DNA of 64,000 bases, from the NCBI GenBank assembly GCA_018303125.1, contig JAGVYS010000002.1, positions 6,600 to 70,599 on the forward strand. The letters run 5' to 3'. Positions 3,730 through 51,073 of the stretch are shown in pieces. This DNA comes from Candidatus Woesearchaeota archaeon. GTDB taxonomy: Archaea; Nanobdellota; Nanobdellia; Woesearchaeales; WJIZ01. A model generated the notes under the pieces. That model saw nothing but the letters and a program-made list of their open reading frames with translations. It was not told the origin of the DNA and did not search any database. The translations under genes were made by a program, and so were the position numbers. How positions within the stretch are numbered: position 1 is the stretch's first letter; each line of letters starts with the position of its first letter.

Positions 3730-3748
3730 AAGGGAAATTAATTCCCTT
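3730..3748 (-). terminator. hairpin (AAGGGA/TCCCTT stem) overlapping the S-layer gene stop, followed by an oligo-T tract on the coding strand
   Basis: Inverted repeat aagggaaattaattccctt at the 3' end of the minus-strand S-layer ORF, then a T-rich run (plus strand shows aaagaaaaaaaag at 3708-3729). Confidence 0.4.
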
Positions 3749-6287
3749 ACTGGGTTACGTTAACAGCTGGTACTACAGGTGCATCAACTACTGGTGCTAC
3801 CACATTTGTCAGCACATCAACGCCATTGACCTTGGTTACCAACTGCTTGGTTACGCCATCAGCCAATGCCTTCAGCTTTGTTGACTCTGCAACTATTGAT
3901 GTAGCTGCCTTTGTATCTGCTGCAAGTGTTCCTGCAACAAGCAATGCTACATTTCCGTTTGCATGGTTAACAAGCTGTATCAGTGCCTCACCAGAGGTTA
4001 ATGTCCAGCCGGTACATGTTGGGAAATCTGCTGATGTCTTCTCGACAGCTGCGTTGGCGCATGGCCCTCCAACAAGTATCACGTTCATGGTGGTTTCCTT
4101 GCCGACTATCTCGCTGGCAAGCTTTGTTGCACCAACATCAATCTTGTTCAGGAATACTGCTTCTCCTGATGCATCAACTGATGTGACCTTTGTTGCTCCT
4201 GCTGTAACGAAGACATTTGCGACAGCCTCTTTCTTCGAGATGGTTATCTCCCACTTGTCCTGATTGTCTGTGCTCTTCTGGACAATTTTGTTTCCCCATG
4301 GCGTATAAGCCTGGTTCTGGTTGTCATCGCTGTCCATGGGTATCATGAAAGCGGACCTTCCAAAGCCCCATCCTGTTGTTGGGATTGTTGCTACTCCATT
4401 TTGCGTTGTGTTGATTGCAGATACATCCAGTCCATCGGCTGCAGTATATGTTACATTAAACATAAGCTCATCGATGTCTGTAGATGAATCTTCCTTTCCA
4501 TCAAGGTCCTCAGTAACATTGAAGACACCTGACCAGTTACCCTGGGCAATCTGATCAATTACTGTGGAGGAGTTTATACCATATACTGGGTTCAGACCGA
4601 TTTTCACATCGTACTGAGTCCAGATATCTGCTATTGTATCTCCAGTATCTGCAGCAATGTTTGATAGTCTCACACAATCGCCTGCTGGGTTAGAGACATC
4701 AATGGTATAGGTTGCTCCATCCATGACAACACTAGACACGTTGAAACCAGATGAGTCAGTATAGCTGTAGTCATTGCTATCTCCGGTTCCTAAGTCCTTC
4801 AGTGTCACTACCTTGTCTGTTGGGCTTACGTCTGACAATCTCAAAATCCTTGAGTTCTTGTTGGACTCAACGATAAAGAGGTCGTTTTTACATACAGTCT
4901 CGCCTTCCCTGAATCTCAGAGGGTCTGCGCCGTTATCATCTTCGCCCCAACCAATATGTGGTCCGGGTGCAGTTGCGTTGTAGTACAATATCCTCTGGTC
5001 ATACTTCACTCCCTTCCTGTTGGTGAACTCAAACTTGTAATAGTTCTTTCCAGAAGGCGTGAATTTCAGCATCTCCGTGTCACTTGCCTCTAACCCAGAG
5101 AACTGATAGTCAATTCCAAGCTTGTCAAACATAAGCTTGTAATCCTTGTTGTCGCTTACTGCTTCAGATAGCTTTCCGCCAACGGGTACAAAATAATCGT
5201 CTGTTGGTGTCCATTGTATTTGGATTTCGCTAAGCTTTCTCTCAGAGCCCGAATCACTCTGGGTTATGGTAACCGTAGCGTCGCTGATTGATTCATCTCC
5301 TACTTCCAATCTTGCATTCTGCCCGTCCAATACTAGCTTTTGTGCGCCAAGGTAGAACTCAACAAGGTTCTGCTTTACATCCCCTGCTTTTGTTGGGAAT
5401 ATCTCCTTGATGCCTATTTCAATACCATCCTTCAGCGTATAAGTCTCGTCGTTGGACAATGAGCTTGTTGACTCATCGTTTACCGTGAACTTTGTTATTG
5501 ATGTGGCACTGGTATCACCTGATACGATATCGTTGGTAACGACATATTCCTTTCCATTAAGAGTGTATGTCTTGGTCTGACCAACTTCAAGGGTATCCTG
5601 ATATGCTCCGGACATAAGGGTAAGTTTCATGTTCCCACTTGCGTTTACTGCCTTGGTAATTGTATAAGTGTTACCAAGCATAGTAATCTGCTCATCCTCA
5701 AAGTCCTTTAGCTTTGTACCATCCCAATCAGATGTTGCTGATGTTGTGAAAGACAACTTATAGTTTATTGCCCTAACTGCATTTTGGAAAGTCAGGTAAA
5801 GTGCTGGATCCTCTGGGCTTACATCTGGGTCTGTCGTAAATCCAACTGATGCAGTTGGCATGGTAAGTGTCTGTGTATAATCAACACTTGACTTAGCCCT
5901 AAATTTGCCATCTGCAAGTGCAGTAAGGTCTGCATCATCAAGAACTGAACTTACGACGCTTAAATTCTGGTATAAGTTTAAGGCATTGCCACTCTCAGAT
6001 ACTCTGAATGCATCCCCTTCAACAGAAACAGATGTAGTTGCTCCAGTGCCTGCCTTAATCTTTGCTGCAAACTGCAAACCGGCTGCAATGTCAGATACTC
6101 CCAATACATCCTGTGCAGATGCTAGGTCTCCTACAACTAGTGCTCCTGTAAACTTGCCATCCTTTATGAATGGGGACGGATAGTCGTTAAGGTCTGCTAG
6201 TGCGGTCGCTCCAAACATGGTAGCGCCAACCATTGTGCTGCCTAATCCCAAGGCAACGATCCTCTTTATTGTTTTTCTTAGTTTCAT
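3747..6287 (-). CDS. S-layer protein (S_layer_N / S_layer_C family, Methanococcales type); ORF extends to 6344 but the signal-peptide start at 6287 is preferred
   Basis: Signal peptide MKLRKTIKRIVALGLGSTMVGATMFGATALA preceded by a GAGGTG SD-like box; N-domain motif ALVVGDLASAQDVLGVSDIAAGLQFAAK; C-terminal Cys pair (GGPCANAAV...CTGW); Thr/Ser/Val-rich; GC-richer, codon-biased gene consistent with high expression. Confidence 0.75.
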   Translation of the reverse strand: MKLRKTIKRIVALGLGSTMVGATMFGATALADLNDYPSPFIKDGKFTGALVVGDLASAQDVLGVSDIAAGLQFAAKIKAGTGATTSVSVEGDAFRVSESGNALNLYQNLSVVSSVLDDADLTALADGKFRAKSSVDYTQTLTMPTASVGFTTDPDVSPEDPALYLTFQNAVRAINYKLSFTTSATSDWDGTKLKDFEDEQITMLGNTYTITKAVNASGNMKLTLMSGAYQDTLEVGQTKTYTLNGKEYVVTNDIVSGDTSATSITKFTVNDESTSSLSNDETYTLKDGIEIGIKEIFPTKAGDVKQNLVEFYLGAQKLVLDGQNARLEVGDESISDATVTITQSDSGSERKLSEIQIQWTPTDDYFVPVGGKLSEAVSDNKDYKLMFDKLGIDYQFSGLEASDTEMLKFTPSGKNYYKFEFTNRKGVKYDQRILYYNATAPGPHIGWGEDDNGADPLRFREGETVCKNDLFIVESNKNSRILRLSDVSPTDKVVTLKDLGTGDSNDYSYTDSSGFNVSSVVMDGATYTIDVSNPAGDCVRLSNIAADTGDTIADIWTQYDVKIGLNPVYGINSSTVIDQIAQGNWSGVFNVTEDLDGKEDSSTDIDELMFNVTYTAADGLDVSAINTTQNGVATIPTTGWGFGRSAFMIPMDSDDNQNQAYTPWGNKIVQKSTDNQDKWEITISKKEAVANVFVTAGATKVTSVDASGEAVFLNKIDVGATKLASEIVGKETTMNVILVGGPCANAAVEKTSADFPTCTGWTLTSGEALIQLVNHANGNVALLVAGTLAADTKAATSIVAESTKLKALADGVTKQLVTKVNGVDVLTNVVAPVVDAPVVPAVNVTQ

Positions 6288-6457
6288 TGTGTTTCCACAC
6301 CTCACTTGATATTTAATTGAGCATTTACGTGCTGGTAAACGCACAGAGTGATTGATGTAGCGAGTTCTTTATAAAGATTCTTATATTTCGCTTTATATAA
6401 AGAGGACATAAAGTTTATATCTGGAAAATTTTTAAGAATAAAACTTTAGTAACTGCA

Positions 6458-7315
6458 TCATATTTTTAGCTGTTTTGAACCGAGAACAGCATAAAAAGAA
6501 TCAAATATCGGCATACTGGTGTCTACTTGTGCAAAATTTATGCCTTTTATGCTGCACTCATGTTCTATCTCCTCTGTATGCTGCCTCATCCTCTTAACAT
6601 ACTCCTCTTTATCCCTTATGGAAAAGTAGGTCCTCATAGTTTCCCCTGATTCAGAATCTTGAAACTTGAAATTTCCTTCAAAGAAAGGCTCTTTTTCATT
6701 TCTGCTTACCACTTGTATAAATGAAGCATCAGCATGCCCGAGGTGCATTATTGTTTCCTTTATGTCATCAATAGAGGAAAAGAAGTCCGATATTACAACA
6801 ATAAGTGACCTGGAGCCTATGGAATGCCTGTATTTCCTCCCAAGACTCCTCATATCCGTTTTTCCACTTGGCTTTATGGAGTTAAGGTAGTCTATCATTG
6901 CCATAACCTGAGACATGCCCCTCTTTGGCTGGTATGCATCTATATTTTCTGAAAATGTCGCAAACTGCACTTTGTCATTGGATTTCATGCCAAGATAAGC
7001 GTAACCTACACCAAGCATCGACGCATAGTCAAATTTCCTGGCAAACCCCATTGACCTGGATTTATCGACGAGAACATGTACTGTTAAGCTTCTTTCCTCT
7101 TCATAATTTTTCATCATCAGCTCATCCGTGCGTGCATAAACTTTCCAGTCTATTGCCCTGAAATCATCTCCTGGAGAATAAATCCTATGGTCCTTGAAAA
7201 CCATTCCTCTTCCGAATGCAGTGGATTTCCTTGGGCCGGAATAATTGGACGTTACTCTTTTCCGTATTATAAGGCTGAATTTCGACATCCCGTCGAGAAA
7301 CGAAGAGTCTATCAT
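6458..7315 (-). CDS. DUF58-domain protein (MoxR-associated, vWA-like)
   Basis: Motif GDDFRAIDWKVYARTDELMMKNYEEE characteristic of DUF58; translationally coupled (overlap) with the upstream MoxR ATPase. Confidence 0.75.
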   Translation of the reverse strand: MIDSSFLDGMSKFSLIIRKRVTSNYSGPRKSTAFGRGMVFKDHRIYSPGDDFRAIDWKVYARTDELMMKNYEEERSLTVHVLVDKSRSMGFARKFDYASMLGVGYAYLGMKSNDKVQFATFSENIDAYQPKRGMSQVMAMIDYLNSIKPSGKTDMRSLGRKYRHSIGSRSLIVVISDFFSSIDDIKETIMHLGHADASFIQVVSRNEKEPFFEGNFKFQDSESGETMRTYFSIRDKEEYVKRMRQHTEEIEHECSIKGINFAQVDTSMPIFDSFYAVLGSKQLKI

Positions 7316-8247
7316 TTGACTTTTTTGATTAATTGCTCTATGACCTGGTCAGGAGTCATTCCTTTTCTCTCTGCCTCGAAATTTAGCAATATCCTGTGCC
7401 TTAGGACAGGATAAGCCAGTTTCTCTATATCCTGGACAGAGACATGGCTCCTGCCTTCTATAAGCGCAGATGCTTTTGCTGCAAGTATTAACCCTATTGA
7501 CGCTCTTGGCGAGGCGCCGTAATGAAGCATATCTTTCTCTTTCCTCGTCTGCTGGACAATCTTAACCACCCTTTGCTTGAGATCCTGGGCAATTGGCATC
7601 TCCCTTACAAGGCTCTGCATTGTGAAAATATGTGTCTTTGTGAGCATTGGCTTTAGGTTCTTTGGCTGCTCATGCTCAGAATATATGTCAGCAATCTTAA
7701 GCTCGTCCTCAAAGTTAGGGTAGTCAACAAGTATCTTTAAAAGGAACCTGTCCTGCTGTGCCTCTGGGAGGGGATATGTTCCCTCTTGCTCGATTGGGTT
7801 TTGTGTGGCAAGAACAAAGAATGGCTTGTCAAGTTCAAAAGTCTCATTCCCCACTGTAACCTGCTTTTCCTGCATTGCCTCCAGAAGAGCGCTCTGCGAT
7901 TTCGGTGTTGCCCTGTTAATCTCATCTGCAAGGACTATGTTTGAAAATACTGGGCCTTTCTGGAACTTGAATTCCCTTTTTCCGGCTTTATCGTCTATTA
8001 TGTATGTACCAGTTATGTCAGATGGCATAAGGTCTGGAGTGCTCTGTATCCTTGTGAATTTAAGGTCCATGAGCTGTGCAAGAGTCTTGACAGCCAAAGT
8101 TTTTGCCAATCCCGGGAAGCCTTCCAGAAGGGCATTTGAATTGCTCAGTATGCATATAAGTATCTGCCTTATAACCTCATCCTGTCCGACGACAACCTTG
8201 TTTACTTCCTTGAAGAGGCTGTCGAATGCTTGCTTGTAGCTTTTCAT
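7312..8247 (-). CDS. moxR: MoxR-family AAA+ ATPase
   Basis: VVGQDEVIRQILICIL...EGFPGLAKTLAVKTLAQL (Walker A-like) and overall MoxR/AAA_3 layout. Confidence 0.9.
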   Translation of the reverse strand: MKSYKQAFDSLFKEVNKVVVGQDEVIRQILICILSNSNALLEGFPGLAKTLAVKTLAQLMDLKFTRIQSTPDLMPSDITGTYIIDDKAGKREFKFQKGPVFSNIVLADEINRATPKSQSALLEAMQEKQVTVGNETFELDKPFFVLATQNPIEQEGTYPLPEAQQDRFLLKILVDYPNFEDELKIADIYSEHEQPKNLKPMLTKTHIFTMQSLVREMPIAQDLKQRVVKIVQQTRKEKDMLHYGASPRASIGLILAAKASALIEGRSHVSVQDIEKLAYPVLRHRILLNFEAERKGMTPDQVIEQLIKKVK

Positions 8248-8257
8248 GTGTCATCAC

Positions 8258-9007
8258 CTAGTTTGCTTTTTTCCTGTCAAAGTACCTTTTTATAAGTATC
8301 TGCTGTTCCTCATTAAACTCAGACTCATAAGCCGCTCCGCTCGATATTAGTATATCACTCGGGAATGATGTGCTGAAATCATAGTCACCTATTTCCCTTG
8401 CCTCTGAAAAATCAAAATCCAATCCGACAGGGTTGATTTCTACAACTATCTTCTCGTTGCCTATCTCAAGCACGGATATGTCTCCTCCTGTAAAATCTGC
8501 CTGCTCTATTTTCTCATCTTTGTCCTGGAATCTCTTCAGTGTTGATTCAACCGCAGCTGAAAAATCAAGAAGCTGTAAGTTCCTGCTTGATACATAAACT
8601 GATGAGGAAACAAGGATTATAAGCATAATTGAGAGTATGATTGCGCTCCTTTCAAAAAAGAAGCTGCTCAAGCTTACTCCCTTAAGATCATGGACAACCT
8701 CTTCCTCAAGATTCTTTAGTACAACGCTATCCTTGTTGCTGTAATCCCTCGCTGTCCTCAATTTCTCGTCTAGTTCAGGATATTTCTGCTCAACTTTCCT
8801 CACATTGTCAGACCTTGGCTCAATTACAAGGGATGAGAAAAGATAGATTATTGCCGGTATTGCTGCAAGATAAGGGTTCAGGCCTGTTATATAGAGGGAA
8901 AAGTAAAATGCCATAAGTATAACAAGGCCTTTCAGTATAACAAAAAAAATGTCAACTTTCCTAAATGAGTCGTCAATTTCGCTTATGGCTTTTTTTATCT
9001 TTTCCAT
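8258..9007 (-). CDS. membrane protein of the MoxR/vWA operon (ORF extends to 9058; internal Met at 9007 avoids overlap with the upstream gene)
   Basis: Two or more predicted TM helices, acidic C-terminal region; no recognisable catalytic motif. Confidence 0.4.
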   Translation of the reverse strand: MEKIKKAISEIDDSFRKVDIFFVILKGLVILMAFYFSLYITGLNPYLAAIPAIIYLFSSLVIEPRSDNVRKVEQKYPELDEKLRTARDYSNKDSVVLKNLEEEVVHDLKGVSLSSFFFERSAIILSIMLIILVSSSVYVSSRNLQLLDFSAAVESTLKRFQDKDEKIEQADFTGGDISVLEIGNEKIVVEINPVGLDFDFSEAREIGDYDFSTSFPSDILISSGAAYESEFNEEQQILIKRYFDRKKAN

Positions 9008-9008
9008 T

Positions 9009-9503
9009 TTAACATACAGATGTATCTCCGCTACAAACCGTATCGACTTTATCCTCATATTCCTTTATATCGTCCTTCAATGATTCGACTTCGTTTTTCA
9101 AGCTGGTAATTTCCTTTTTCTGGTCAGATATCTCTGACTGCGCCGAAAGAAGCTTGTTCGTTGATTCAAGCAATTGTGTCTTTGTCTCAGAAAGATCAGA
9201 CTCAAGCCTGCTCTTGTCTGTTTTTAGGCCATCATTCTCTGTCCTTATCTCATCATATTTTTTGCTTAGGGCGGTTTCATCCTGAGACTTATCCTGAAGG
9301 TCCTCAGCAGTCTTGTTAAGCCTTGTCTTGTAGAAAAGAAGCTGGTCTGCCACTTCTTCCAGATTGTTGAGTTTCTTGCTGTATTCATGCGATAAGGTTG
9401 TGTAATTGTGATTATAGTATAGGCCGAGAAACACAAAGCATACTGCTACCATTACTACAATTATCAGGAGCCCTACATTAACATCTTTTTTTAAAAAGCT
9501 CAT
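9009..9503 (-). CDS. N-terminally membrane-anchored coiled-coil protein
   Basis: One N-terminal TM helix (LLIIVVMVAVCFVFLGLYY) followed by ~120 aa of heptad-rich, charged sequence (LESDLSETKTQLLESTNKLLSAQSEISDQKKEITSLKNEVESLKDD). Confidence 0.4.
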   Translation of the reverse strand: MSFLKKDVNVGLLIIVVMVAVCFVFLGLYYNHNYTTLSHEYSKKLNNLEEVADQLLFYKTRLNKTAEDLQDKSQDETALSKKYDEIRTENDGLKTDKSRLESDLSETKTQLLESTNKLLSAQSEISDQKKEITSLKNEVESLKDDIKEYEDKVDTVCSGDTSVC

Positions 9504-11938
9504 TTTATAGATTGCGAATGTTCAAATATTTTCCTTATAAATACTTCGATAATGTATATTGCCAGAAGCATGGCTAAAGGATACAGCCTCAAGTCTACCC
9601 TGTCAGTTTCTGTCCTGAGGGTATAGCTCGTTAGCTCATCAGTTATGCTTTCATCCAGCTTGATTACCTTTCCCCCGGACACAGATACCATATTATATAT
9701 CTCCTTGTTTAGGCCGAGCCTGTAATATTCCTTATAATTGTTTACAGCGACAAGTGCATCGAAAAACTGGAAGTATCCTGGCCCATTTGGCCTGAATGAT
9801 GCCTTGTATATATCTTGGCCTTCTTTCACAAAAGCAATCTCTTTGGAAACTGGGTAATTCTTTGATTTCACAATAACCTCATTATCCTCTCCCAGATAGC
9901 TGTCTTTCACGTCTATTAGTATTTCCTTGTCTTTTTCAGGATTGCCGACAGCATAGTTTATCATTCTTGTAATGAGAATTGAATTTTCCTTATCCAACAA
10001 TTGCCCTGCCCATTCCCTCCCATCATCACTCGCAAATGTTACCACTCTACCTAATCCAAAATTCCAGGAATTCAGAACAGGATTTCCGTCTCCGGTGAAT
10101 ATAAGGCTCTTTGCGCCTAGCTTAGGCACAACAAAATTCACACCGGATACCCTAGCATTTATGTCTAGGGCGTTTGTTATGAAGTGATCTTTATCAACTA
10201 TGGCCAGATTGCTATTTCCTGAAAATATCTTCTCTTTGGCCTCTGGCTTACCGAAGAATATGTTCAAGTATTGGTAATCCTCTGGCTCAAAATAACTCCC
10301 GCTACCTATTGAGGCGAGCTTCTTTAGGAACTGCCGATTTATGGTTTCCTGGCCGCTTATCAAAGAATGCAAACCAACAGTGTATATCCTCACTCCATCT
10401 TTTGCCATCTTTTCTGCAACTGATTTTGGAGCAGGAGGTTCTTTTATGTTTCCCATCTTGCCATCAGAGATGAGAATAACGTTCTTTGTCCCTTTTACCT
10501 TGTCCAGTAACCTGCTTGCCCAGATAAGTCCTTGGTCTATAGCCGTGCCTTGCCCGCTGCCTATCCTCTTTATCTTGTCTATAATGACTTCCCTATTCCC
10601 CTTAAGTTCTGTTGGCTCCGCAACATTTTGTGCAAGGCTTGCAAAAGCAACCACTCCCACATTTATGTCATCCCTAAATGTCTCAACCATCTTGACTGCA
10701 ATTCCCTTCCCGAGGTCAAGGGCAGATCCTGTAGCACCTTTTTTATAGGCAAAATCGCTGAAACTGTCAGATACATCTATTATTATGATTATGTTGTGCT
10801 GTAACTGGTCTACAATCTTTCCAGAGCCCACTTTTACAGGAAGCATCGATTCAACAAGCGTCCCCTCATAGCCTCCTCTATCGAAAGAATTCCTGCCGCC
10901 TATGAAAACAATTCCTCCTCCGTTAATAAGGAACTCTATCAGCCCATCTATTTTTCCACTTATGGCGCTATAATGGACATTATCCATGACAACAGCAAAA
11001 TATTTTTCTAGATTATCAGGTATGTTCTTAGTTATGGTCAGATGATATATATCACCCAGGCTTCTTTCCAATGGACCAGGTTCAGGGGATACAAACAGCA
11101 CCTCTGGCTTTGGAACAGCATTTACTGTCTTGTAAAAAACGTTGTTCTCCACAAAATAATCTTTCAATTCTATTTTTGCGGTTATTTTATGGTATCCTTT
11201 CCCGAAAGTATGCAAAATATCTTTCTCCCTTACGTTTCCTCCTGTAAACTCAAGCTTGTCATCGATGTATATCTGCAAAGTAAACGCTGGTTCCGCCCCT
11301 ATATTACCGACCTTTATCTTAAATAGATTCGGTGTATCTTCTATTGTATCGCTAGGCCCGATTATCTCAACATAGGCATCATTTGCCTCGGGCACAATTT
11401 CAAATGCGAATAACTTTGTATCTGATATCTTGGAGTATATCCCAACATCAATAAGCGATTTTCCAAAATTGCTATTCCCGTCGCTAAGTATCAGAAGGTT
11501 ATCATTGCCTTCAATCTTCCTTAGAATTCCATCTCCAATATCTGAAACTTTGCCGGAAGATATCTGGCTAATTTCTACAGGCGCATTTTTTCCTATTTTG
11601 CTCTTAAGGCTTTCAAGCACAGAATCACCAAATACTTTCATTGACTCAGTATTGTCTACTAGAAGTTTTATCACAGGGTCTCCATGTGTTGAAACTTCCT
11701 TCGTTGTGAATGGGAAAGCAAAGGCAATCAGTAACAACAGTATCATCAAAAGCCTAAAAATTGAAAATAATATCCTGAGGAGTCTTTTTCTCCTGTGAAA
11801 TTCCTTTTTTTCCTCCTTGCTGCCAAACTTTATGAAATCGTGATAAACAAAAAAAAGAAGCACTGCGGCTGCTGGAAATATTAAAAGTAGCACATAGGGG
11901 TTTTCCAGGCAATAGTTGTTATAGCATCCAAACGTCAT
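9500..11938 (-). CDS. large membrane protein with vWA domain (BatB/BatA-like)
   Basis: N-terminal TM helices; internal vWA-like MIDAS segment IIIIIDVSDSFSDF...GTAIDQGL...ILISDGKMGN. Confidence 0.55.
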   Translation of the reverse strand: MTFGCYNNYCLENPYVLLLIFPAAAVLLFFVYHDFIKFGSKEEKKEFHRRKRLLRILFSIFRLLMILLLLIAFAFPFTTKEVSTHGDPVIKLLVDNTESMKVFGDSVLESLKSKIGKNAPVEISQISSGKVSDIGDGILRKIEGNDNLLILSDGNSNFGKSLIDVGIYSKISDTKLFAFEIVPEANDAYVEIIGPSDTIEDTPNLFKIKVGNIGAEPAFTLQIYIDDKLEFTGGNVREKDILHTFGKGYHKITAKIELKDYFVENNVFYKTVNAVPKPEVLFVSPEPGPLERSLGDIYHLTITKNIPDNLEKYFAVVMDNVHYSAISGKIDGLIEFLINGGGIVFIGGRNSFDRGGYEGTLVESMLPVKVGSGKIVDQLQHNIIIIIDVSDSFSDFAYKKGATGSALDLGKGIAVKMVETFRDDINVGVVAFASLAQNVAEPTELKGNREVIIDKIKRIGSGQGTAIDQGLIWASRLLDKVKGTKNVILISDGKMGNIKEPPAPKSVAEKMAKDGVRIYTVGLHSLISGQETINRQFLKKLASIGSGSYFEPEDYQYLNIFFGKPEAKEKIFSGNSNLAIVDKDHFITNALDINARVSGVNFVVPKLGAKSLIFTGDGNPVLNSWNFGLGRVVTFASDDGREWAGQLLDKENSILITRMINYAVGNPEKDKEILIDVKDSYLGEDNEVIVKSKNYPVSKEIAFVKEGQDIYKASFRPNGPGYFQFFDALVAVNNYKEYYRLGLNKEIYNMVSVSGGKVIKLDESITDELTSYTLRTETDRVDLRLYPLAMLLAIYIIEVFIRKIFEHSQSIK

Positions 11939-13707
11939 AAGTCCCCTCTTCTTTTTATGTAGAAAATCTCGAACAAAAATAGTGCTGCTGCAGCTAAAAG
12001 GATATAAAATCCCAGGTTGACCTCAACTGGCGCTTTATCAAGTGTCTCATTGAAATCACTGCTGTTGATAATAGCTGACTTTCTTGTTATGTCAGATTCC
12101 TGCTGATTCAGAAGGTTTACTGCTATTCTTCCGCTTTCGCTTTCAAAAAAGCCTATATTTTCAAGCACTTCCCTTCCTGACTTATTGAAGCCTAAAATTG
12201 AATCTCCGGTCTTGTAATTGAAATTAGACAGTTCCTCCCTACCTAGCATGAAATTAATGAGAGAATCCCAGAATAAAGGATATGAAACCTGCTCTTCAAA
12301 ATCTCCCTCTATTATTCCATAATAAAGAAGCCCGCCTTCTGAGATTAATAATGGATTTCCGGATTTTGAGGATGCAAGAACAATCGAATTGTTATTCTTT
12401 ACTTTTGCTTCGAGGTATTTTGAAATTGATGCAAAGCATCTTGGGCTGCTTATTCCCTTTGTAATCGCACTTACTATATCTACGCAGGCTTCGTCCTCCT
12501 TGTTAATGGCAGACCCAACTTCAAATCCGGTAAGTCCATCTGTGCTACCGAGTCCATCATATGCTGAAAGTATTACTTTGCCTCCCTTCCCAACATATTC
12601 TTTTATTTCCTTGAATGTGTTTGGCAAAATATTGCCCTTGGCTATGTCGCTGACAAATACAATATCGTGAGTTAATTCCGGAAATACAGGGGGCACAGCA
12701 ACATTAACAACAAATTGAGTATTTGCAATAAGGGCATCGAGTTTGGAGTTGCTATTCTTGTTGTTCGTTATAAATAATATATTAATTTTCTCCTTATAAG
12801 GATTTGAGAGGTATATCCTGTCATCCCTGTCAAAAATGTCCTTCTGTGCCAGCTCTAATGTGGTTTCACCCTGAGGTATGTCGAAGGATATATATTCGCT
12901 CGAACCAGGTTCTATATCCATCTTTTTCCTCTGCTTTTCAGCGCCATTGATAGACATCTTCACTTCTACTGACCTTGCTGTCTCGCCGAAATTCCTGACG
13001 TATGCCTCACCTGCTCCCCTATATATGTTGAGTTCGGTAAATCCCATATTCTGCTTCGGAGAACCTGCCTGTATGAATACAACTCTTTTGTTGTTCACCT
13101 CGGAAATTTTCTTTGCTGCCAGTATATCTTCATCAGGCACTAGCAAAAAATCAGAGTACACTAATATAGTGCCCTTTTCTGTGCCCAGTATGTCATTTGC
13201 CAAAAGGATTGAGCTGTCTATCCTTGTTGGCACATCTACAGGCGCAAGATTGGATATTATTGCCCTTGCCCGGCTTGATGAGACGTTCCTTACTACAACA
13301 ACAGGAGATTCCGCCGCAAGTATAACGCTTGCCTTGCCCTTTATTTCACTAAGAAGTTCTTTCTTGTTGCTATCAAGCCTTGTTACTGCGCCCTCCTTTA
13401 CCCACATGGAAGAACTTACATCCACAACAGCTATGGTATTAAGAGAAAAAACATCCATCGGGAAATCTATTACCGGACCTGCAGAGCTTACGGCAAGAAA
13501 AGCTATGAAAAAAAGCTGGATGAAGAATAGTGCCTTGAGCAATAGCTTCTGGAAGAAAGCATTGTATTTCCTTACGTTTTTCTGCTGCATGAAAAACATA
13601 AGTGAAGGCACATTTAGGTCAACAGGCTTGGCCTTGATAAGATAGATAATTATAAGAGGCACAATGAACCAAAGAAGGTGAAGGGCTTGGGGTGTAGTGA
13701 ATTCCAT
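11935..13707 (-). CDS. BatA-like vWA-domain membrane protein
   Basis: N-terminal two-TM aerotolerance-regulator-like segment, then IAVVDVSSSMW (DxSxS MIDAS) vWA domain; overlaps downstream gene start (operon). Confidence 0.6.
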   Translation of the reverse strand: MEFTTPQALHLLWFIVPLIIIYLIKAKPVDLNVPSLMFFMQQKNVRKYNAFFQKLLLKALFFIQLFFIAFLAVSSAGPVIDFPMDVFSLNTIAVVDVSSSMWVKEGAVTRLDSNKKELLSEIKGKASVILAAESPVVVVRNVSSSRARAIISNLAPVDVPTRIDSSILLANDILGTEKGTILVYSDFLLVPDEDILAAKKISEVNNKRVVFIQAGSPKQNMGFTELNIYRGAGEAYVRNFGETARSVEVKMSINGAEKQRKKMDIEPGSSEYISFDIPQGETTLELAQKDIFDRDDRIYLSNPYKEKINILFITNNKNSNSKLDALIANTQFVVNVAVPPVFPELTHDIVFVSDIAKGNILPNTFKEIKEYVGKGGKVILSAYDGLGSTDGLTGFEVGSAINKEDEACVDIVSAITKGISSPRCFASISKYLEAKVKNNNSIVLASSKSGNPLLISEGGLLYYGIIEGDFEEQVSYPLFWDSLINFMLGREELSNFNYKTGDSILGFNKSGREVLENIGFFESESGRIAVNLLNQQESDITRKSAIINSSDFNETLDKAPVEVNLGFYILLAAAALFLFEIFYIKRRGDL

Positions 13708-13907
13708 TATTGACCCCTCTTCCTGAGCATTTTCTTTTGAAGCTCATTTTCATTAAGAAGTTCCTTTAAAAGGACAAGAGCATCATCAATCTCATACCAG
13801 AAAAGCTCGCTCTCTGCCATTATCCCCAAGTCACTTCTGGCTTCAATAGGTATTGTTATTTGTCCCTGCTTTGTTACCTTCACCTTTGATATGAACTTTG
13901 GCCGCAT
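13707..13907 (-). CDS. AbrB/MazE/SpoVT-family DNA-binding protein
   Basis: 66 aa; KVTKQGQITIPIEARSDLGI swapped-hairpin signature. Confidence 0.55.
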   Translation of the reverse strand: MRPKFISKVKVTKQGQITIPIEARSDLGIMAESELFWYEIDDALVLLKELLNENELQKKMLRKRGQ

Positions 13908-13993
13908 TATTAATACTATTAATTTACTTAATTTTAATACTTATAAAACTTTGCAAATAGCGGGCCAATATTTTTAAATGGGGCGATAACGTT

Positions 13994-15109
13994 TTGCGTA
14001 TGATTTCAGTAATAGGCGCCGGGCCTGCGGGAAGCTTTTATGCCTATAAGGAGAAGCATGATGATGTCACAATATTCGAAGAGCACAAGACATGCGGCGA
14101 TCCGGTTGCGTGCACAGGAATACTTACCGATTCTGTGAAGCAGTTCGTAGACATACCTAGAAACCTAATTGTAAGCAAGATAAGGAAATTCAAGATGGTT
14201 TCTCCAAATGGAAAGGAGATGTATATAGACTTGAAGAAGGAAAACCTTGTTCTTGATAGGGCAAGATTCGATAGGTTTATTCTTGACAAAGCTCTTGACA
14301 AAGGTGTAAAAATAAATCTTGGAGAGAAATTTCTTGGATATAAAAAATCTGGGAAAGGGTATTCCATAAAGACAAGCAAGCGCACATACGATACAAGCAT
14401 GATAGTAGGCGCAGATGGCCCATTCAGCCAGGTAGCAAGGTCAACAGGCATATATGGAAATAGGACATTTGTAAAAGGATGGCAGGCAAGATGCAAATTC
14501 CCAAATCTTGAGCCTGGTGTGACCGAGATTCATCTCAATCTGGGTGAATTCTCATGGGTTGTGCCTGAAGATGACAAAATAGCAAGAGTTGGTGTGATAG
14601 GTATAGACAACACGAAGCTAAAGAGCGATTACAAAAAGCTTCTGGGTGCATCTAAGGTAATTGAAGACCAATCAGGGTATATTCCAGTGTATAACCCAAA
14701 GCAGAGGCTCAGGAAAGAAAACGTTTTCCTTATAGGGGACGCTGCCACGCAGGTGAAGGCAACAACATACGGGGGCATTCTTTACGGAATGATAGCGGGA
14801 AACTATCTAGCAATGGACAAAGAAGATTACATAAGCAATGTTAACAAAAAGCTCGCAAAGGATTTATGGGTGAGCCTTAAAATGAGGGAAATGATGAACA
14901 GCATGTCTGAGAAACAGGCAAACGAAATGATTGAGATATTCAGGAAGAAGAGCAATACCGATATACTTTCCAACCATGACAGGAATTTCCCCTCAAAATT
15001 CATAGTGCAGCTGCTGATGAAGGAAGCAAAGCTATGGAAGCTTGGCTTCAGCATATTCAGGAACAGGGTGTTCGGAAAAAAAGGCATGGAAGAGATGTTC
15101 ATTAAGTGA
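13994..15109 (+). CDS. geranylgeranyl reductase family FAD-dependent oxidoreductase (digeranylgeranylglycerophospholipid reductase-like)
   Basis: VIGAGPAGSFYAY dinucleotide-binding motif, DPVACTGIL, GDAA...TTYGGI motifs typical of GGR. Confidence 0.8.
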   Translation: MRMISVIGAGPAGSFYAYKEKHDDVTIFEEHKTCGDPVACTGILTDSVKQFVDIPRNLIVSKIRKFKMVSPNGKEMYIDLKKENLVLDRARFDRFILDKALDKGVKINLGEKFLGYKKSGKGYSIKTSKRTYDTSMIVGADGPFSQVARSTGIYGNRTFVKGWQARCKFPNLEPGVTEIHLNLGEFSWVVPEDDKIARVGVIGIDNTKLKSDYKKLLGASKVIEDQSGYIPVYNPKQRLRKENVFLIGDAATQVKATTYGGILYGMIAGNYLAMDKEDYISNVNKKLAKDLWVSLKMREMMNSMSEKQANEMIEIFRKKSNTDILSNHDRNFPSKFIVQLLMKEAKLWKLGFSIFRNRVFGKKGMEEMFIK

Positions 15110-15160
15110 GATGTTCTAACCCCCGAAAAGATTAAATTCTCGCATTTAATCCTAGCATCA

Positions 15161-16372
15161 ATGAAAAGGAGAGAAAGCATAGAAGTACAGGTAGGTAAGG
15201 TAGGCATTGGCGCAGATAACCCTATAAGGATACAGTCAATGACCAATACCCCAACATCAGATGTTGATGCAACCGTTTCCCAGATAATTGAGCTTATAGA
15301 GGCTGGTTCTGAGCTGGTAAGGTTCACTGTAAAAGATTTCAAGGATGCTGAGGCTGTTCCAAAGATAAAGGAAAAACTCGAGCAGGAAAAATATGATGCT
15401 CCATTGATAGGTGATTTCCACTATAATGGCCATCTTCTTCTCAAGAAATATCCAGAGGCAGCTCAAGCTTTGGACAAGCTAAGGATAAATCCAGGAAATG
15501 TCGGCTTTGGGAACAGCCATGACTCAAATTTTAAAATGATAATAGACAAGGCAATTGAATTCGGGAAGCCTGTAAGGATTGGTGTAAATTTTGGCTCAAT
15601 CGACCAGAGAATATTCATGCGTCTTATGGATGAAAACTCCAAAAAGGAGCAGGAAGAGCAGAAAAGCTCAGAGGAACTGGTTGTTGAGGCAATGTGCCAG
15701 AGTGCAGTTGAGTCTGAAAATTTAGCCAAGGAGTATGGAATGAAACCCAATAAGATAATCCTATCTGCAAAAGTCAGCGACGTCTCATCAGTTGTAAATG
15801 CATATACCGAACTTGCTAAGTTAACAAAGCAGCCCCTCCATCTTGGCCTGACTGAAGCAGGCATGGGAGAAAAGGGAATAATAGCAACAGCTGCTGCACT
15901 AAGCACGATACTGAATAAAGGCATAGGCGATACTATAAGGGTATCTTTGACACCAAGGCCAGGTGCTTCAAGGACAGAAGAAGTAAAGGTTGCCCAGCAG
16001 ATATTGCAGGCAAATGGCCTTAGGAGTTTTTTGCCATCTGTGACTAGCTGTCCGGGCTGTGGCAGGACTTCTTCTGCGCTTTTCCAGGAGATAGCAGAGG
16101 AAATAACAGAATACCTGCAGAAAAGGGCAAAGGAGTGGAAAAAAGCAGGGAAAAAAGGCTTTGAAGAGATGAGGGTAGCTGTGATGGGATGTGTTGTAAA
16201 CGGCCTTGGAGAAAGCAGAAACGCCAACATCGGACTAAGCCTGCCTGGAAGCGGGGAGGACCCTGTTTCACCAGTATACGCAGATGGAAAGGAGATAACA
16301 AGGCTGCATGGCGAAACAAGAATATCAGATTTTAAGAAACTGATTGAAGAATATGTCGAAAATCATTATTAG
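15161..16372 (+). CDS. ispG: 4-hydroxy-3-methylbut-2-en-1-yl diphosphate synthase (IspG/GcpE), bacterial type
   Basis: Conserved blocks IRIQSMTNT, RINPGNVG, QPLHLGLTEAG, GIGDTIRVSL, CPGCGRT, GCVVNGLGE align with bacterial IspG. Confidence 0.9.
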   Translation: MKRRESIEVQVGKVGIGADNPIRIQSMTNTPTSDVDATVSQIIELIEAGSELVRFTVKDFKDAEAVPKIKEKLEQEKYDAPLIGDFHYNGHLLLKKYPEAAQALDKLRINPGNVGFGNSHDSNFKMIIDKAIEFGKPVRIGVNFGSIDQRIFMRLMDENSKKEQEEQKSSEELVVEAMCQSAVESENLAKEYGMKPNKIILSAKVSDVSSVVNAYTELAKLTKQPLHLGLTEAGMGEKGIIATAAALSTILNKGIGDTIRVSLTPRPGASRTEEVKVAQQILQANGLRSFLPSVTSCPGCGRTSSALFQEIAEEITEYLQKRAKEWKKAGKKGFEEMRVAVMGCVVNGLGESRNANIGLSLPGSGEDPVSPVYADGKEITRLHGETRISDFKKLIEEYVENHY

Positions 16373-17286
16373 GGCTTTAGTTCATCAGGCATCATGAACT
16401 GTACATTTTCCTTTACTGCCTCCAGCTCCTCAACTTCGGAAGGGTAATATCCCTTGATTGCGCTCACTACCCCCTTTACAAGCACATCAGGAACAGACGC
16501 TCCAGATGTTACGCCTATGACCTGCGCATCCCTAATCCATTCATTCTTTATAGACATGCTGTCCGATATCAAGTAAGAATTTACTCCGCAATGCCTTGCG
16601 GCATCAACAAGCCTGTTTGAATTCGAGCTGGTTGGCGAGCCAACAACAAGTATTAGGTCAGCATATTTGCATAATTCCTTGACTGCATTCTGCCTATTTG
16701 TTGTTGCATAGCATATATCCTCTTTAGGAGGTGATTCTATTTTTGGAAACTTTTTTTTCAGTGCAGAGATAATTATGCTTGTGTCATCAAGCGATAATGT
16801 TGTCTGGGTGAGATAAACCATCTTTTCAGAGTCTATCTCAAGCTTCGATACATCATTCAGATTCTCGACAAGATGCATGTGAGCATAACCCATTGTTCCT
16901 TCAACCTCTATATGCCCTCTATGCCCGACTAGCACTATAGAATAGCCATTGCGGCTATATCTCCTTGCCTCAACATGTACTTTTGTCACAAGAGGGCAGA
17001 CAGCATCTATTACCTCAAGTCCCATGGTTTTTGCATCTGCCTTTACAGATGGGGAAGTCCCATGTGCGCTGAATATAGCCCTGCTACCAGAAGGTATCTC
17101 TGACAAATTCTCGACAAAAATTGCGCCCTTCTTTTCGAGATCACGTACCACATAAACATTATGGACTATATGATGCTTTACATAAATAGGTCTGCCAAAT
17201 TTTTCAAGGGCTGCTTCCACTATATCCACTGCCCTTGTAACGCCGGCGCAATACCCTCTTGGGTTAGCCAGAAGTATCTTTTTCAT
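16369..17286 (-). CDS. ispH: 4-hydroxy-3-methylbut-2-enyl diphosphate reductase (IspH/LytB), bacterial type
   Basis: Near-colinear match to bacterial IspH: ILLANPRGYCAGVTRA, IYVKHHIVHN, CPLVTKVH, LTQTTLS.DDT, DICYATTNRQ, SSNSNRL. Confidence 0.85.
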   Translation of the reverse strand: MKKILLANPRGYCAGVTRAVDIVEAALEKFGRPIYVKHHIVHNVYVVRDLEKKGAIFVENLSEIPSGSRAIFSAHGTSPSVKADAKTMGLEVIDAVCPLVTKVHVEARRYSRNGYSIVLVGHRGHIEVEGTMGYAHMHLVENLNDVSKLEIDSEKMVYLTQTTLSLDDTSIIISALKKKFPKIESPPKEDICYATTNRQNAVKELCKYADLILVVGSPTSSNSNRLVDAARHCGVNSYLISDSMSIKNEWIRDAQVIGVTSGASVPDVLVKGVVSAIKGYYPSEVEELEAVKENVQFMMPDELKP

Positions 17287-17319
17287 ATTCAGAGAGAGCG
17301 AAAAGAATGCATAAAAAGC

Positions 17320-18609
17320 TTACGACTCCCTTAAGTATCCCCAGGTATTGAGCTTGTCCGAATCCTCGAACCACCTATCACCTATGTCTGTCCTGTAATA
17401 CATATGGGGGATTATAATATTCCTAATCCTGCTGTAAACTTGGCTTTGAGTCTGCCTCATGGTCTGGCCTGTGCCGCATACTATCAACGCAACACCAACC
17501 GTTCCTGTTATGACCCACTCACCATTGACAAGCTTCATATCCTCGATATGCACTCCATCCATAGGTTTCTTGAAGTAAACTAATGAATCCTTTGATTTAA
17601 CCTCAAATGTCTCCTTGTCATTAAATGGGAACGGGGGAACAACAATCCTGACGCCTATCTGGAACCCGCTCTTGAACTTGAGCTTTGGCAAATTGCCATG
17701 CGCTATTTCGTAAAGGAACTCCCCTATAGGAGTGTTCATCCCTTCCTGCTGTATACTGATTGTTGGATATCCGAATCTTGTCGTGAATTCCAATGGATAT
17801 ATTCCATAGCTGTTGACAATGCAGTTAATGTCTATGTATCCGACATATTTCTCCTCGGCAAGCTTTTGCTCCATTTTCTTTAGGGTATTGTTGAATATCT
17901 TGTTTGGCACGGACCAGAACATTGTGCATCCCATCTCACCTGTAGATGGGCCAAGGTTTCCGGGAAACAATTTCTTGTGCTCAAAGTTAACATTTATTGG
18001 GTAGATGAACTCATTGCCATTGAAGAAAGCTCCCACAGCAACCTCAACTCCGCTTATCGCCTTTTGCAGCTGGAAAACTGGTATTTTCTTTGACCATGAT
18101 TTCTTATAATCGCCAAGAACCTGAATGACATCCTTGCCGTCCTCCTCCTCGCCAACGAAAAGAAGGCCTTTTATGTTCTGAGACTGGCCACTTGGCTTTA
18201 TGACATACTTTCCTGGATTCTGCTTGACAAACTCTATGGCCTCATCAAAAGAAGTAAAGTCCTTATAAGGTATTATTGGCACTCCGAATCTCTTCAGCTC
18301 TTCCTGCCCAAATGCCCTGTCATCTTCAAGGCTATCAGTATATGGAGTGCCTCCTATTACAAATTTCCCCTTGTTTCGCAGCTTCTTGGCTTTTGTCCCC
18401 TGCCCTAGGACATCATCAAATACTATTATATCTGCCCATTCTGTTTCCTTTTCCCAGTCGCTGATTTTAGGTACGAAACCATCTCCGACTTCCGATTCTT
18501 CCTTGTTCTGGACATAATATTTTACCTGATTCCCTTCTTTGATTATCTGCCATGCTAAGTCTACACTTAATGCATCAAGAGAAACAAAAAGAAATTTTTT
18601 TGGCTCCAC
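17320..18609 (-). CDS. ATP-grasp enzyme of the PurD (phosphoribosylamine--glycine ligase) family
   Basis: Blocks YVIKPSGQSQNIKG, GPSTGEMG, IDINCIVNSYGIYPLEFTTRFGYP parallel PurD motifs; N-terminal region divergent. Confidence 0.5.
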   Translation of the reverse strand: MEPKKFLFVSLDALSVDLAWQIIKEGNQVKYYVQNKEESEVGDGFVPKISDWEKETEWADIIVFDDVLGQGTKAKKLRNKGKFVIGGTPYTDSLEDDRAFGQEELKRFGVPIIPYKDFTSFDEAIEFVKQNPGKYVIKPSGQSQNIKGLLFVGEEEDGKDVIQVLGDYKKSWSKKIPVFQLQKAISGVEVAVGAFFNGNEFIYPINVNFEHKKLFPGNLGPSTGEMGCTMFWSVPNKIFNNTLKKMEQKLAEEKYVGYIDINCIVNSYGIYPLEFTTRFGYPTISIQQEGMNTPIGEFLYEIAHGNLPKLKFKSGFQIGVRIVVPPFPFNDKETFEVKSKDSLVYFKKPMDGVHIEDMKLVNGEWVITGTVGVALIVCGTGQTMRQTQSQVYSRIRNIIIPHMYYRTDIGDRWFEDSDKLNTWGYLRES

Positions 18610-40320: not shown

Positions 40321-40329
40321 CAGAATATC

Positions 40330-41064
40330 CTATCCGAAATGCTCATACTCTCCGTAAGTAAAAAAACCAACGAGCTCCTTAATTCTTGCAAGCAATGGGA
40401 ACAGGTCCTTCTCAAGCGAAGGCTTATTTATCAGCTCAAATATTTCAGGCTTGAATATGTATATGCCCGCATTAACAATGTGGGAACTCATTTCCCTTGT
40501 CTTCTCGCTAAAGTCAACTATAAGATCGCCATCTAGGATAGCTGTCCCATATTCATCAGGCTTTTCCCTGGTCATAAGCCCCATGGTAGCTAGCTTGTTC
40601 AACTGAATATGTTTGCTTATCATCCTGGATATGTCAAAGTTGTTGTATGTATCTCCTGACATCACAACGAAATTTCCCCTGACCCTTTCCTTAAAAGTCA
40701 TCAATGACAGAGAATTGCCTCTAGAATTTGACTCAATTATTTCTATTGGCATACCTATAAGCGATTCTCTTAGCTCCTTATTTGGCTGTTCTGTGATAAG
40801 ATATATTTTGCTGATTCCGTTTTTAATGAAAAATTCCGCTTGGCTGCCTATTAGGCTCTTCCCCTTAAATTGCTTCAATGCTATATCCTGATGTGACCTC
40901 TTAAGCAGAAGTACTGCCTCTCCGACAGAATTTGAGGACATGCCCTTTCTTAGGTAATACTCTATAGCCTGGCTCCTTGACCTAAGCATCGTACCATCTA
41001 CTCCCGAGTCTATGAGTTTTAGAAGTGAATTATCTATTGAAATTGCAATTTTTTCTTTTAACAA
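40330..41064 (-). CDS. fusion of an N-terminal ribbon-helix-helix-like segment with a degenerate sugar-nucleotidyltransferase domain (candidate regulator)
   Basis: N-terminus KIAISIDNSLLKLIDSG...RSRSQAIEYYLRKGM resembles CopG/Arc RHH; remainder aligns with the NTP_transferase ORF at 28826 (GKSLIG..., YGTAILDGDLIVDFSEK, NAGIYIFKPEIFE, EKDLFPLLA) but lacks the catalytic LAGGxGTRL loop. Confidence 0.45.
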   Translation of the reverse strand: MLKEKIAISIDNSLLKLIDSGVDGTMLRSRSQAIEYYLRKGMSSNSVGEAVLLLKRSHQDIALKQFKGKSLIGSQAEFFIKNGISKIYLITEQPNKELRESLIGMPIEIIESNSRGNSLSLMTFKERVRGNFVVMSGDTYNNFDISRMISKHIQLNKLATMGLMTREKPDEYGTAILDGDLIVDFSEKTREMSSHIVNAGIYIFKPEIFELINKPSLEKDLFPLLARIKELVGFFTYGEYEHFG

Positions 41065-44566: not shown

Positions 44567-44593
44567 TCAGGCAATTTTATATAATGCCATTAA

Positions 44594-51072: not shown

Positions 51073-51073
51073 T

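Follow-up and report, generated by a model that had tools for sequence, protein, structure and literature searches.

Bacterial-type IspG and IspH in a Woesearchaeal genome: probably an old acquisition kept in a module with a geranylgeranyl reductase-family gene

Introduction

The mevalonate pathway is the textbook route to isoprenoid precursors in archaea. Why, then, does a 64-kb stretch of DNA from a Candidatus Woesearchaeota archaeon (64,000 nucleotides, referred to here as the window) encode IspG and IspH, which catalyze the final two steps of the bacterial MEP pathway, how long have these enzymes been there, and do they act alone or as the end of a complete pathway?

The bacterial MEP/DOXP pathway has been described in Woesearchaeota and DPANN archaea, with a bacterial origin inferred (Hoshino and Gaucher 2018, PMC6107057; Castelle et al. 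2021, PMC8204110; Huang et al. 2021, PMC8421398; mBio 2024, PMC10936187), and Castelle and Banfield 2018, as cited in PMC8204110, is a further source. Within one clade of 52 genomes the pathway is widespread (PMC8204110), and in Woesearchaeota it is the sole isoprenoid-precursor pathway found (PMC8421398). The original prediction had presented the gene pair as noteworthy for this lineage; that novelty is lost, since MEP enzymes in Woesearchaeota and DPANN were published in 2018, 2021 (when they received close study) and 2024, and the exact proteins of the window are in NCBI. MEP enzymes in this archaeon are thus already known, and their presence adds no new biology. We examined the identity, arrangement, age and pathway partners of the pair.

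Results

The ispG (gcpE) gene occupies positions 15161..16372 on the + strand and encodes a 403-aa putative HMBPP synthase of the long two-domain "Thermus-type" form (NCBI MBS3135465.1), while ispH (lytB) lies at 16369..17286 on the − strand and encodes a 305-aa putative HMBPP reductase (NCBI MBS3135466.1). The two genes are convergent, and their stop codons overlap in the tetranucleotide TTAG at 16369-16372. Just upstream of ispG, across a 51-nt spacer, is a gene for a GGR-family FAD-dependent oxidoreductase (14000..15109, + strand; 369 aa from the ATG at 14000), for which the mechanical call opens at a TTG at 13994 (13994..15109, +) and the public gene calls start at the ATG at 14000. On the other side, 33 nt separate ispH from the preceding PurD-like gene. 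The convergent pair beside a GGR gene had been predicted, and the open reading frames were found where they had been placed. Reading of the sequence also revealed A/T-rich elements before all three genes, which are possible archaeal TATA boxes: ATTTTTAAAT at 13970..13979 (+), some 25 nt before the ATG of the GGR-like gene; GATTAAAT at 15130..15137 (+), within the GGR-ispG spacer and some 27 nt before the ATG of ispG; and TTTTTAT at 17311..17317 (−), in the spacer after the PurD-like gene and some 28 nt before the ATG of ispH.

The window IspG matched the Pfam GcpE model over residues 8-397 of 403 (E 1.2e-109) and cleared the NCBIfam equivalog cut-offs of NF001540 (424.4 bits, cut-off 345) and TIGR00612 (374.5 bits, cut-off 280.25). 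It aligned over its full length with Thermus thermophilus IspG (PDB 4s38/2y0f; 3-402 to 5-401, 488 bits), a two-domain bacterial form whose long inserts it shares, and the ligand motifs of that enzyme (Cys-x-x-Cys ... Cys ... Glu) aligned with CPGCGRT and GCVVNGLGES in the window protein. The corresponding [4Fe-4S] ligands, C297, C300, C344 and E351, are invariant in an alignment of 20 sequences of the clade (alignment A2). Apart from its archaeal host, the protein differs from the T. thermophilus enzyme in having Leu in place of Pro in the GCVVNG(P/L)GES motif. A flavodoxin or ferredoxin gene that could provide electrons to IspG was not identified adjoining the locus. As judged by these models and motifs, the protein is a member of the IspG/GcpE family (HMBPP synthase, EC 1.17.7.x).

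For IspH, the Pfam LYTB model matched residues 4-278 (E 1.8e-91), and the equivalog cut-offs of NF002188 (436.2 bits, cut-off 420) and TIGR00216 (308.6 bits, cut-off 187.85) were exceeded. The identity to E. coli K-12 IspH was 53.9% over 308 residues, in line with the earlier estimate of "roughly half identical", and the E. coli structures (PDB 3ke8, 3zgl and others) aligned over the full length with 349 bits. All three cluster cysteines and the His, Glu, Thr, Ser and Asn substrate-binding residues of the E. coli enzyme were aligned in the window protein, in which the matching motifs are PRGYCAGV, DAVCPLVTKVH, DICYATTNRQ, VHN, SAHG, GHRGHIEVEGT, TQTT, SSNSNR and GAS. The protein is accordingly classed, on profile and residue matches, as a member of the IspH/LytB family (HMBPP reductase, EC 1.17.7.4). 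The gene context differs from that of E. coli, where ispH lies in an fkpB-ispH context, whereas in this archaeal host it is convergent with, and overlaps, ispG.

The product of the neighboring gene exceeded the cut-off of a single model, that of the superfamily (TIGR02032, GG-red-SF; 165.3 bits, cut-off 158.8), which places it by profile score in the geranylgeranyl reductase superfamily. Its sole PDB match was the digeranylgeranylglycerophospholipid (DGGGPL) reductase of Thermoplasma acidophilum, 3oz2 (E 5.8e-13, 51.5 bits, residues 5-280), with which the FAD-binding GxGxxG, the GDAA and [FY]xWxxP motifs (FSWVVP in the window) and a conserved Cys that follows the first beta-alpha-beta unit aligned. 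Assignment as a GGR sensu stricto, i.e., a DGGGPL reductase, was rejected, the protein being far under both equivalog cut-offs (NF041080, 61.5 versus 580 bits; NF041160, 42.9 versus 780 bits). Because of these low scores and the match of only 51.5 bits to 3oz2, the candidate substrates are left broad and include polyprenols, dolichols, squalene-like chains and lipids.

By its gene content, the contig that carries these genes is unmistakably archaeal (DPANN/Woesearchaeota). The window encodes aIF2alpha, PAC2, Gins51, an S-layer outer domain (S_layer_C) and STT3/AglB, Nop10 and the ribosomal proteins L44e and S27e are found at or beside its left end, and L10e also lies beside it; NCBI labels the exact IspG and IspH proteins (MBS3135465.1 and MBS3135466.1) "Candidatus Woesearchaeota archaeon". 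Among the archaeal markers of the original prediction, aIF2a, Nop10 and AglB stood, and the tRNA intron did not, as neither ARAGORN nor Rfam (gathering score and E ≤ 0.1) detected a tRNA in the window. With the equivalog cut-offs passed and these markers present, its central observation, bacterial-type IspG and IspH on a Woesearchaeal contig, was upheld.

The order GGR-like, IspG, a variable gene and IspH recurs in three further Woesearchaeota/Nanoarchaeota contigs (L016, L017 and L020). The identities to the window proteins in these contigs were, respectively, 77, 71 and 69% for the GGR-like protein encoded directly upstream of ispG, 79, 68 and 71% for IspG, and 62, 59 and 60% for IspH. As judged from these values, the three proteins have diverged in parallel across the contigs that bear the module (59-79% identity). 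The middle gene in relatives often belongs to the squalene/phytoene-synthase family (SQS_PSY), and at L019 a cis-prenyltransferase gene is linked to the pair. No SQS_PSY remnant was found in the window, where the only match, a weak one of 47 residues, falls inside aglB.

This module is distinct from the published Woesearchaeal cluster, of the type seen in L021, YT1_182 and Yap2000.bin4.8, where a short IspG is co-located with Dxr, IspD/F, IspE, IspH and a polyprenyl synthase. The window module has a GGR-family gene and lacks upstream MEP genes nearby, and its enzymes share only 36% (IspG) and 33% (IspH) identity with their L021 counterparts, with 35% for IspG of YT1_182. On these identities (33-36%) and the lack of an adjoining dxr-ispD/F-ispE, the window pair was not assigned to the co-located cluster. 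The evidence favors two unrelated lineages of terminal MEP enzymes in Woesearchaeota, one co-located with dxr-ispD/F-ispE and the other, that of the window, linked to a GGR-family reductase and often to a squalene/phytoene-synthase gene. Two such lineages would imply that the terminal steps were displaced or acquired a second time.

Neither dxs, dxr, ispD, ispE nor ispF was found in the 64-kb window, in 10 kb past each of its ends, or within ±10 kb of the homologue at six related loci (about 230 kb in total), and tblastn with Dxr, IspD/F and IspE gave no match in the window. This count of zero is uninformative, since only about one match would be expected in 230 kb of partly syntenic sequence if the four or five genes were scattered over a genome of roughly 1 Mb. 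A relative is more telling. The Woesearchaeal MAG UBA9638 (85% complete, with a binning error being possible) encodes Dxs_00146, Dxr_00145, IspD/F_01192 and IspE_01193 at loci apart from its IspG, which is 66.4% identical to the window IspG and falls into the same 9-member clade in a neighbor-joining (NJ) tree (bootstrap 100/200). The IspG alignment of Huang et al. (PMC8421398) includes this clade member as UBA9638_00236. Non-co-location is therefore normal for this type of IspG and says nothing on absence. In a search with a Woesearchaeal Dxr profile, the best 120 matches all shared 62-80% identity with the sequence that headed the query, and all named ones were archaeal; ten NCBI Woesearchaeal Dxr entries were checked, and no accession lay near MBS31354xx.

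Composition and phylogeny bear on the age of the acquisition. Relative to the window, the ispG/ispH pair showed codon-fit z values of +1.7 and +1.3, GC3 z values of −0.4 and −0.7, and a typical tetranucleotide distance, i.e., both genes match their host. The nearest named homologues of IspG and IspH are mainly from Woesearchaeota, Nanoarchaeota and DPANN. IspG is 63-79% identical to its nearest named archaeal homologues versus 62% or less for the best named bacterium, and IspH is 57-61% identical to the former versus 55-56% for named bacteria; overall, the closest archaeal relatives reached 79% (IspG) and 66% (IspH), and no bacterial homologue exceeded 62%. Scanning of contigs of GTDB representative genomes with the window IspG yielded only five loci, all bacterial and of 52-56% identity, and a metagenome contig scan with the 20-sequence archaeal IspG-clade alignment yielded at least 80 loci, all of 53-57% identity and probably bacterial. 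The same partner genomes were nearest to the window sequences in both NJ trees, in which clade support was modest, with about 50% at the inner clade of IspG. Because the IspH tree lost all resolution when rooted with the 33%-identical L021 IspH (bootstraps 6-65 of 200), monophyly of archaeal IspH is not claimed.

Discussion

We consider it quite probable that the IspG and IspH of the window are an old bacterial acquisition, kept vertically as a linked module and catalyzing the last two steps of a complete but dispersed MEP pathway. Direct support comes from the identity of the enzymes and their intact catalytic residues, the archaeal context, the host-like composition, the conserved synteny and the complete, though scattered, pathway of UBA9638, whose IspG belongs to the same clade. 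Both proteins would be functional [4Fe-4S] enzymes of bacterial origin, with IspG predicted to convert MEcPP to HMBPP and IspH to convert HMBPP to IPP and DMAPP. Their ancestors would have been gained from bacteria long ago and then inherited in a Woesearchaeota/Nanoarchaeota clade as a module of GGR-family reductase, IspG, a variable middle gene and IspH. The dxs, dxr, ispD/F and ispE genes of this organism would reside elsewhere in its genome, most likely completing a MEP pathway that may supply C5 units for isoprenoids, which the adjoining GGR-family enzyme may partly saturate. Expression would proceed from archaeal-type promoters.

The best-surviving alternative, which we nevertheless regard as unlikely, is that the organism lacks all genes from dxs to ispF and takes MEcPP or HMBPP from a bacterial host for conversion into IPP and DMAPP. 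It draws on the empty search of about 230 kb, on the general host dependence of DPANN archaea, among which some Woesearchaeota have been proposed as episymbionts of bacteria (PMC8204110), and on the table of Huang et al. (PMC8421398), where ispH is somewhat more common than the other MEP genes and stands alone in several subgroups. Yet about one match was expected in the area searched, patchy presence tables are explained by MAG incompleteness, and UBA9638 holds the full upstream set at other loci. Moreover, no transporter is known for the charged diphosphates MEcPP and HMBPP. We thus give only a slim chance to a GGR-like-long IspG-IspH module that may work on host-derived MEcPP or HMBPP without upstream MEP enzymes; if true, it would be a salvage route of two enzymes without a described precedent in any organism. 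Salvage by the terminal steps had been put forward in the original prediction together with the possibility that the earlier genes lie outside the window, and the dispersed set of UBA9638 favors the latter. "Terminal steps only" is probably not a correct description of this organism.

More doubtful still is a reading in which the two genes are relics or have a function outside precursor synthesis, and IPP is made by a mevalonate pathway whose genes lie elsewhere. Some bacteria, e.g., Listeria (PMC13001223), do have incomplete MEP pathways that are probably non-isoprenogenic, and our view of the upstream genes is limited to the window, its flanks and the related loci. Against this, the catalytic residues are all intact and invariant across the clade, the genes are tightly linked to others that handle isoprenoids (GGR-like, SQS_PSY and, in L019, cis-prenyltransferase), and MEP is the only pathway reported in Woesearchaeota by Huang et al. 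(PMC8421398).

The original prediction had also read the similarity of IspH to the E. coli enzyme as a sign that the genes had recently moved by horizontal transfer from bacteria. The 54% identity to E. coli IspH and the scores of named bacterial IspH proteins, barely below those of named archaeal ones, could be read this way, but such an event is very improbable given the host-like codon usage and composition, the lower identity of bacterial than of archaeal homologues, the DPANN origin of the nearest ones and the retention of the three-gene module in diverged archaeal genomes. Finally, contamination in the form of a bacterial fragment fused to an archaeal contig by assembly or binning is excluded for practical purposes. 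Nothing was found in its favor, three assemblies made separately from different samples (ENA ERZ27254845, Logan SRR3989338 and Logan SRR2090155) show identical gene order across both junctions, there is no compositional break, and other genomes show the same arrangement within archaeal neighborhoods.

What the module adds is modest: a second, unrelated IspG/IspH lineage in Woesearchaeota, set in a conserved GGR module, and pathway partners that are scattered rather than clustered. As a consequence of this scatter, such genomes will tend to be wrongly scored as "partial MEP" when pathway completeness is called from fragmentary MAGs. More broadly, the occurrence of bacterial MEP enzymes in an archaeon is relevant to the "lipid divide" and to the isoprenoid supply of reduced DPANN symbionts.

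Results

The isoprenoid locus comprises, in the ORF list, ispG (15161-16372, plus strand, 403 aa) and ispH (16369-17286, minus strand, 305 aa), a convergent pair whose stop codons share the tetranucleotide TTAG, and a geranylgeranyl reductase (GGR)-like ORF 51 nt 5′ of ispG (13994-15109, plus strand, 371 codons; public gene calls begin with the ATG at 14000 and yield 369 aa). IspG matched Pfam GcpE at 1.2e-109, exceeded the NCBIfam equivalog cutoff of NF001540 (424 versus 345 bits) and passed TIGR00612, while IspH matched LYTB at 1.8e-91, exceeded the cutoff of NF002188 (436 versus 420 bits) and passed TIGR00216. These coordinates and scores agree with the original prediction of bacterial-type ispG and ispH beside a GGR-family gene. 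The upstream protein passed only the superfamily model TIGR02032 (165.3 bits; cutoff, 158.8) and fell far below both archaeal lipid-reductase equivalogs in NCBIfam scoring, and the alignment to its sole solved relative, the Thermoplasma reductase 3oz2 (E 5.8e-13), matched the FAD-binding and catalytic motifs. Judged from its sequence, this protein should be labeled GGR-family, with no narrower substrate assignment. A/T-rich boxes lie 25 to 28 nt 5′ of all three start codons, and these candidate boxes would fit archaeal TATA-driven, near-leaderless expression.

Window IspG aligned over its full length with that of Thermus thermophilus (4s38/2y0f; 488 bits), and the match took in the cluster ligands CPGCGRT and GCVVNG-GE, which were invariant across the closest IspG relatives in a 20-sequence alignment. 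IspH aligned end to end with the Escherichia coli IspH structures (349 bits), retaining all three cysteines and the HMBPP-holding His/Glu/Thr/Ser/Asn residues, and its identity to E. coli K-12 IspH, estimated by eye as roughly half, measured 53.9% over 308 residues.

The gene order was retained in three diverged relatives, the Woesearchaeota/Nanoarchaeota contigs L016 (FAD/GGR-like, one ORF, IspG, SQS_PSY, IspH), L017 (GCA_018221205.1; GGR-like, IspG, SQS_PSY, IspH) and L020 (GCA_030647105.1; GGR-like, IspG, 555-aa ORF, IspH), where it is surrounded by archaeal genes, such as those encoding primase and RadA and those of diphthamide and wyosine synthesis. Identities to the window proteins in L016, L017 and L020 were 77, 71 and 69% for GGR, 79, 68 and 71% for IspG, and 62, 59 and 60% for IspH, respectively, a parallel divergence that vertical descent of a linked module would predict. 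What lies between ispG and ispH varies. L016 (6624-7604, minus strand) and L017 (11232-12209, plus strand) each have a squalene/phytoene-synthase-family gene there, and these two share only 40% identity; L020 has an unrelated ORF of 555 aa (11285-12952, plus strand), and the window has no intervening gene, ispG and ispH overlapping at 16369-16372. In two more distant archaeal relatives, window-type ispH occurs without ispG nearby, adjoining a cis-prenyltransferase gene among ribosomal protein and EF genes in L019 (9189-10924; JGI 3300027896, a 223-kb contig) and a thermosome gene in L103 (10001-10927).

A different arrangement is found in the woesearchaeal locus L021 (GCA_016180235.1, 8220-16297), where a short IspG, Dxr, fused IspD/F, IspE, a 320-aa IspH (versus 305 aa in the window) and polyprenyl synthase are co-located beside ribosomal protein genes, in agreement with Castelle et al. 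2021 (PMC8204110) and Huang et al. 2021 (PMC8421398). Against their counterparts in this cluster, the window proteins reach only 36% (IspG) and 33% (IspH) identity, and window IspG is 35% identical to that of YT1_182, which has the same cluster type. Whereas the L021 pair lies beside dxr, ispD/F, ispE and polyprenyl synthase, the window pair is linked to a GGR-family gene (14000-17286). Woesearchaeota thus have two unrelated lineages of terminal MEP enzymes, the window pair being a second one.

The original prediction also held that having only the terminal MEP steps could mean salvage of MEcPP or HMBPP from a bacterial host, or a partial pathway with earlier genes outside the window. No dxs, dxr, ispD, ispE or ispF was found in the window or 10 kb past either end, nor in the 10 kb to each side of the homologue at six related loci (~230 kb examined overall). 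With 4 to 5 scattered genes per ~1-Mb genome, about one match is expected in 230 kb, and the zero therefore carries little weight. Moreover, UBA9638 (GCA_013329175.1), a groundwater MAG that is 85% complete and included in the source alignments of Huang et al., encodes an IspG of the window's long type (UBA9638_00236; 66.4% identical) inside the query's innermost 9-member clade, and is also present in the alignments of Dxs (_00146), Dxr (_00145), IspD/F (_01192) and IspE (_01193). The pathway is therefore complete but scattered over at least three loci in at least one member of this clade, so that absent neighbors in the window are expected and are not evidence of salvage. Terminal steps alone are thus unlikely, and the organism of the window probably carries the upstream genes.

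Recent transfer from bacteria, as first proposed, was not supported. GC was 0.435 for ispG and 0.429 for ispH (window mean, 0.404; SD, 0.022), GC3 was 0.406 and 0.392 against 0.422 (z −0.4 and −0.7), and codon usage fitted the other 54 genes better than average (z +1.7 and +1.3). In tetranucleotide profile the ispG/ispH segment was closer to the window as a whole than were 77% of the other 2.1-kb segments. NCBI holds both exact proteins (MBS3135465.1 and MBS3135466.1) as Candidatus Woesearchaeota archaeon, and the named next-best matches were mainly Woesearchaeota, Nanoarchaeota or "DPANN archaeon." Relatives of IspG were 79, 71 and 63 to 70% identical, and no named bacterium exceeded 62%; those of IspH were 66 and 62% identical, with named archaeal sequences at 57 to 61% and named bacterial ones at 55 to 56%. 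In neighbor-joining trees the two query proteins had the same partner genomes as nearest neighbors, with modest support, and the IspH tree fell apart once a distant outgroup was added; the case against recent transfer rests on synteny in diverged relatives and composition, not on trees. IspG and IspH are of bacterial origin but were not recently transferred.

A chimeric assembly is excluded: three contigs, each assembled separately from a different sample (ENA ERZ27254845, Logan SRR3989338, Logan SRR2090155), carry the identical IspH flanked left and right by the same neighbors. The 104.7-kb ENA contig with the locus stops, by coordinate mapping, at ~6336 of the window, at the start of an S-layer-like gene (3747-6344); other assemblies bridge this point, and the break may reflect strain variation in that gene. 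The archaeal nature of the contig was confirmed by aIF2alpha, Nop10 (~818-994) and STT3/AglB (1,034 aa), along with a PAC2 proteasome-assembly protein, Gins51, an S-layer outer domain, and ribosomal proteins L44e, S27e and L10e just outside the left end. No tRNA was detected in the window (ARAGORN; Rfam at gathering score and E ≤ 0.1), nor any rRNA or other Rfam family in its 64 kb even at E ≤ 0.1; the archaeal assignment stands without the tRNA intron once cited for it.

Immediately 5′ of the isoprenoid genes, the other strand carries an operon similar to the aerotolerance (Bat) system of bacteria (6458-13707, minus strand), with DUF58, a MoxR-type AAA ATPase, DUF7502, a 164-aa ORF, an 812-aa VWA protein and a 590-aa BatA/DUF7407/DUF7408 protein. 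Between the BatA-like and GGR-like genes is a 66-aa ORF (13707-13907, minus strand) with a weak MazE-antitoxin (SpoVT/AbrB) Pfam match, called as a gene in public assemblies. On the other side, an ATP-grasp protein with GARS_A and GARS_C domains (17320-18609, minus strand) scored far below the purD equivalog cutoff (110 versus 288 bits). The end of its gene is separated by 33 nt from ispH, which is on that strand too, and the two may therefore be co-transcribed; in relatives this gene is not adjacent to ispH.

A gene set like that for bacterial ADP-heptose synthesis (39223-52643) lies inside an archaeal glycosylation cluster next to AglB/STT3 (35071-38175). By Pfam, it includes three GT9 (family 9) "heptosyltransferase" genes (39223-40320, 49326-50360 and 51645-52643), a GmhA-like SIS gene (41162-41728), an HldD-like epimerase (41674-42609), a PfkB kinase like the HldE kinase part (42606-43577), and a HAD plus CTP_transf_like gene (43574-44566) resembling the GmhB phosphatase and HldE adenylyltransferase part. 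With roles assigned from Pfam domains, this set may represent a further bacterial-type pathway of the archaeon.

Discussion

Bacterial-type MEP enzymes in Woesearchaeota are already known, since they were reported in DPANN archaea by Hoshino and Gaucher 2018 (PMC6107057) and Castelle and Banfield 2018 (as cited in PMC8204110), called widespread across a woesearchaeal clade with 52 members (PMC8204110), analyzed by gene-by-gene trees including a sequence of the window's IspG clade (Huang et al. 2021, PMC8421398), and reported again in marine DPANN in 2024 (PMC10936187). In the accessible text of these papers we found no discussion of two IspG/IspH lineages or of a conserved GGR-IspG-X-IspH module, which are minor refinements. 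For bacteria, partial MEP pathways have been documented, but the reviews describing them (PMC10663253, PMC13001223) do not include an IspG-plus-IspH-only pattern; salvage therefore stays an interesting idea, though unsupported.

With upstream enzymes encoded elsewhere in the genome, Dxs to IspF would make MEcPP, which IspG would reduce to HMBPP and IspH would reduce further to IPP and DMAPP; prenyltransferases would build longer chains from these, and the GGR-family flavoenzyme inherited together with the pair would saturate some double bonds of the product. The squalene/phytoene-synthase genes in the L016 and L017 modules and the cis-prenyltransferase of L019 point to a role in downstream isoprenoid chemistry. 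Because Woesearchaeota are reported to lack GGGP and DGGGP synthases (Huang et al., PMC8421398) and the window is rich in N-glycosylation genes, AglB among them, we speculate that a reasonable candidate product would be a polyprenol or dolichol-type carrier.
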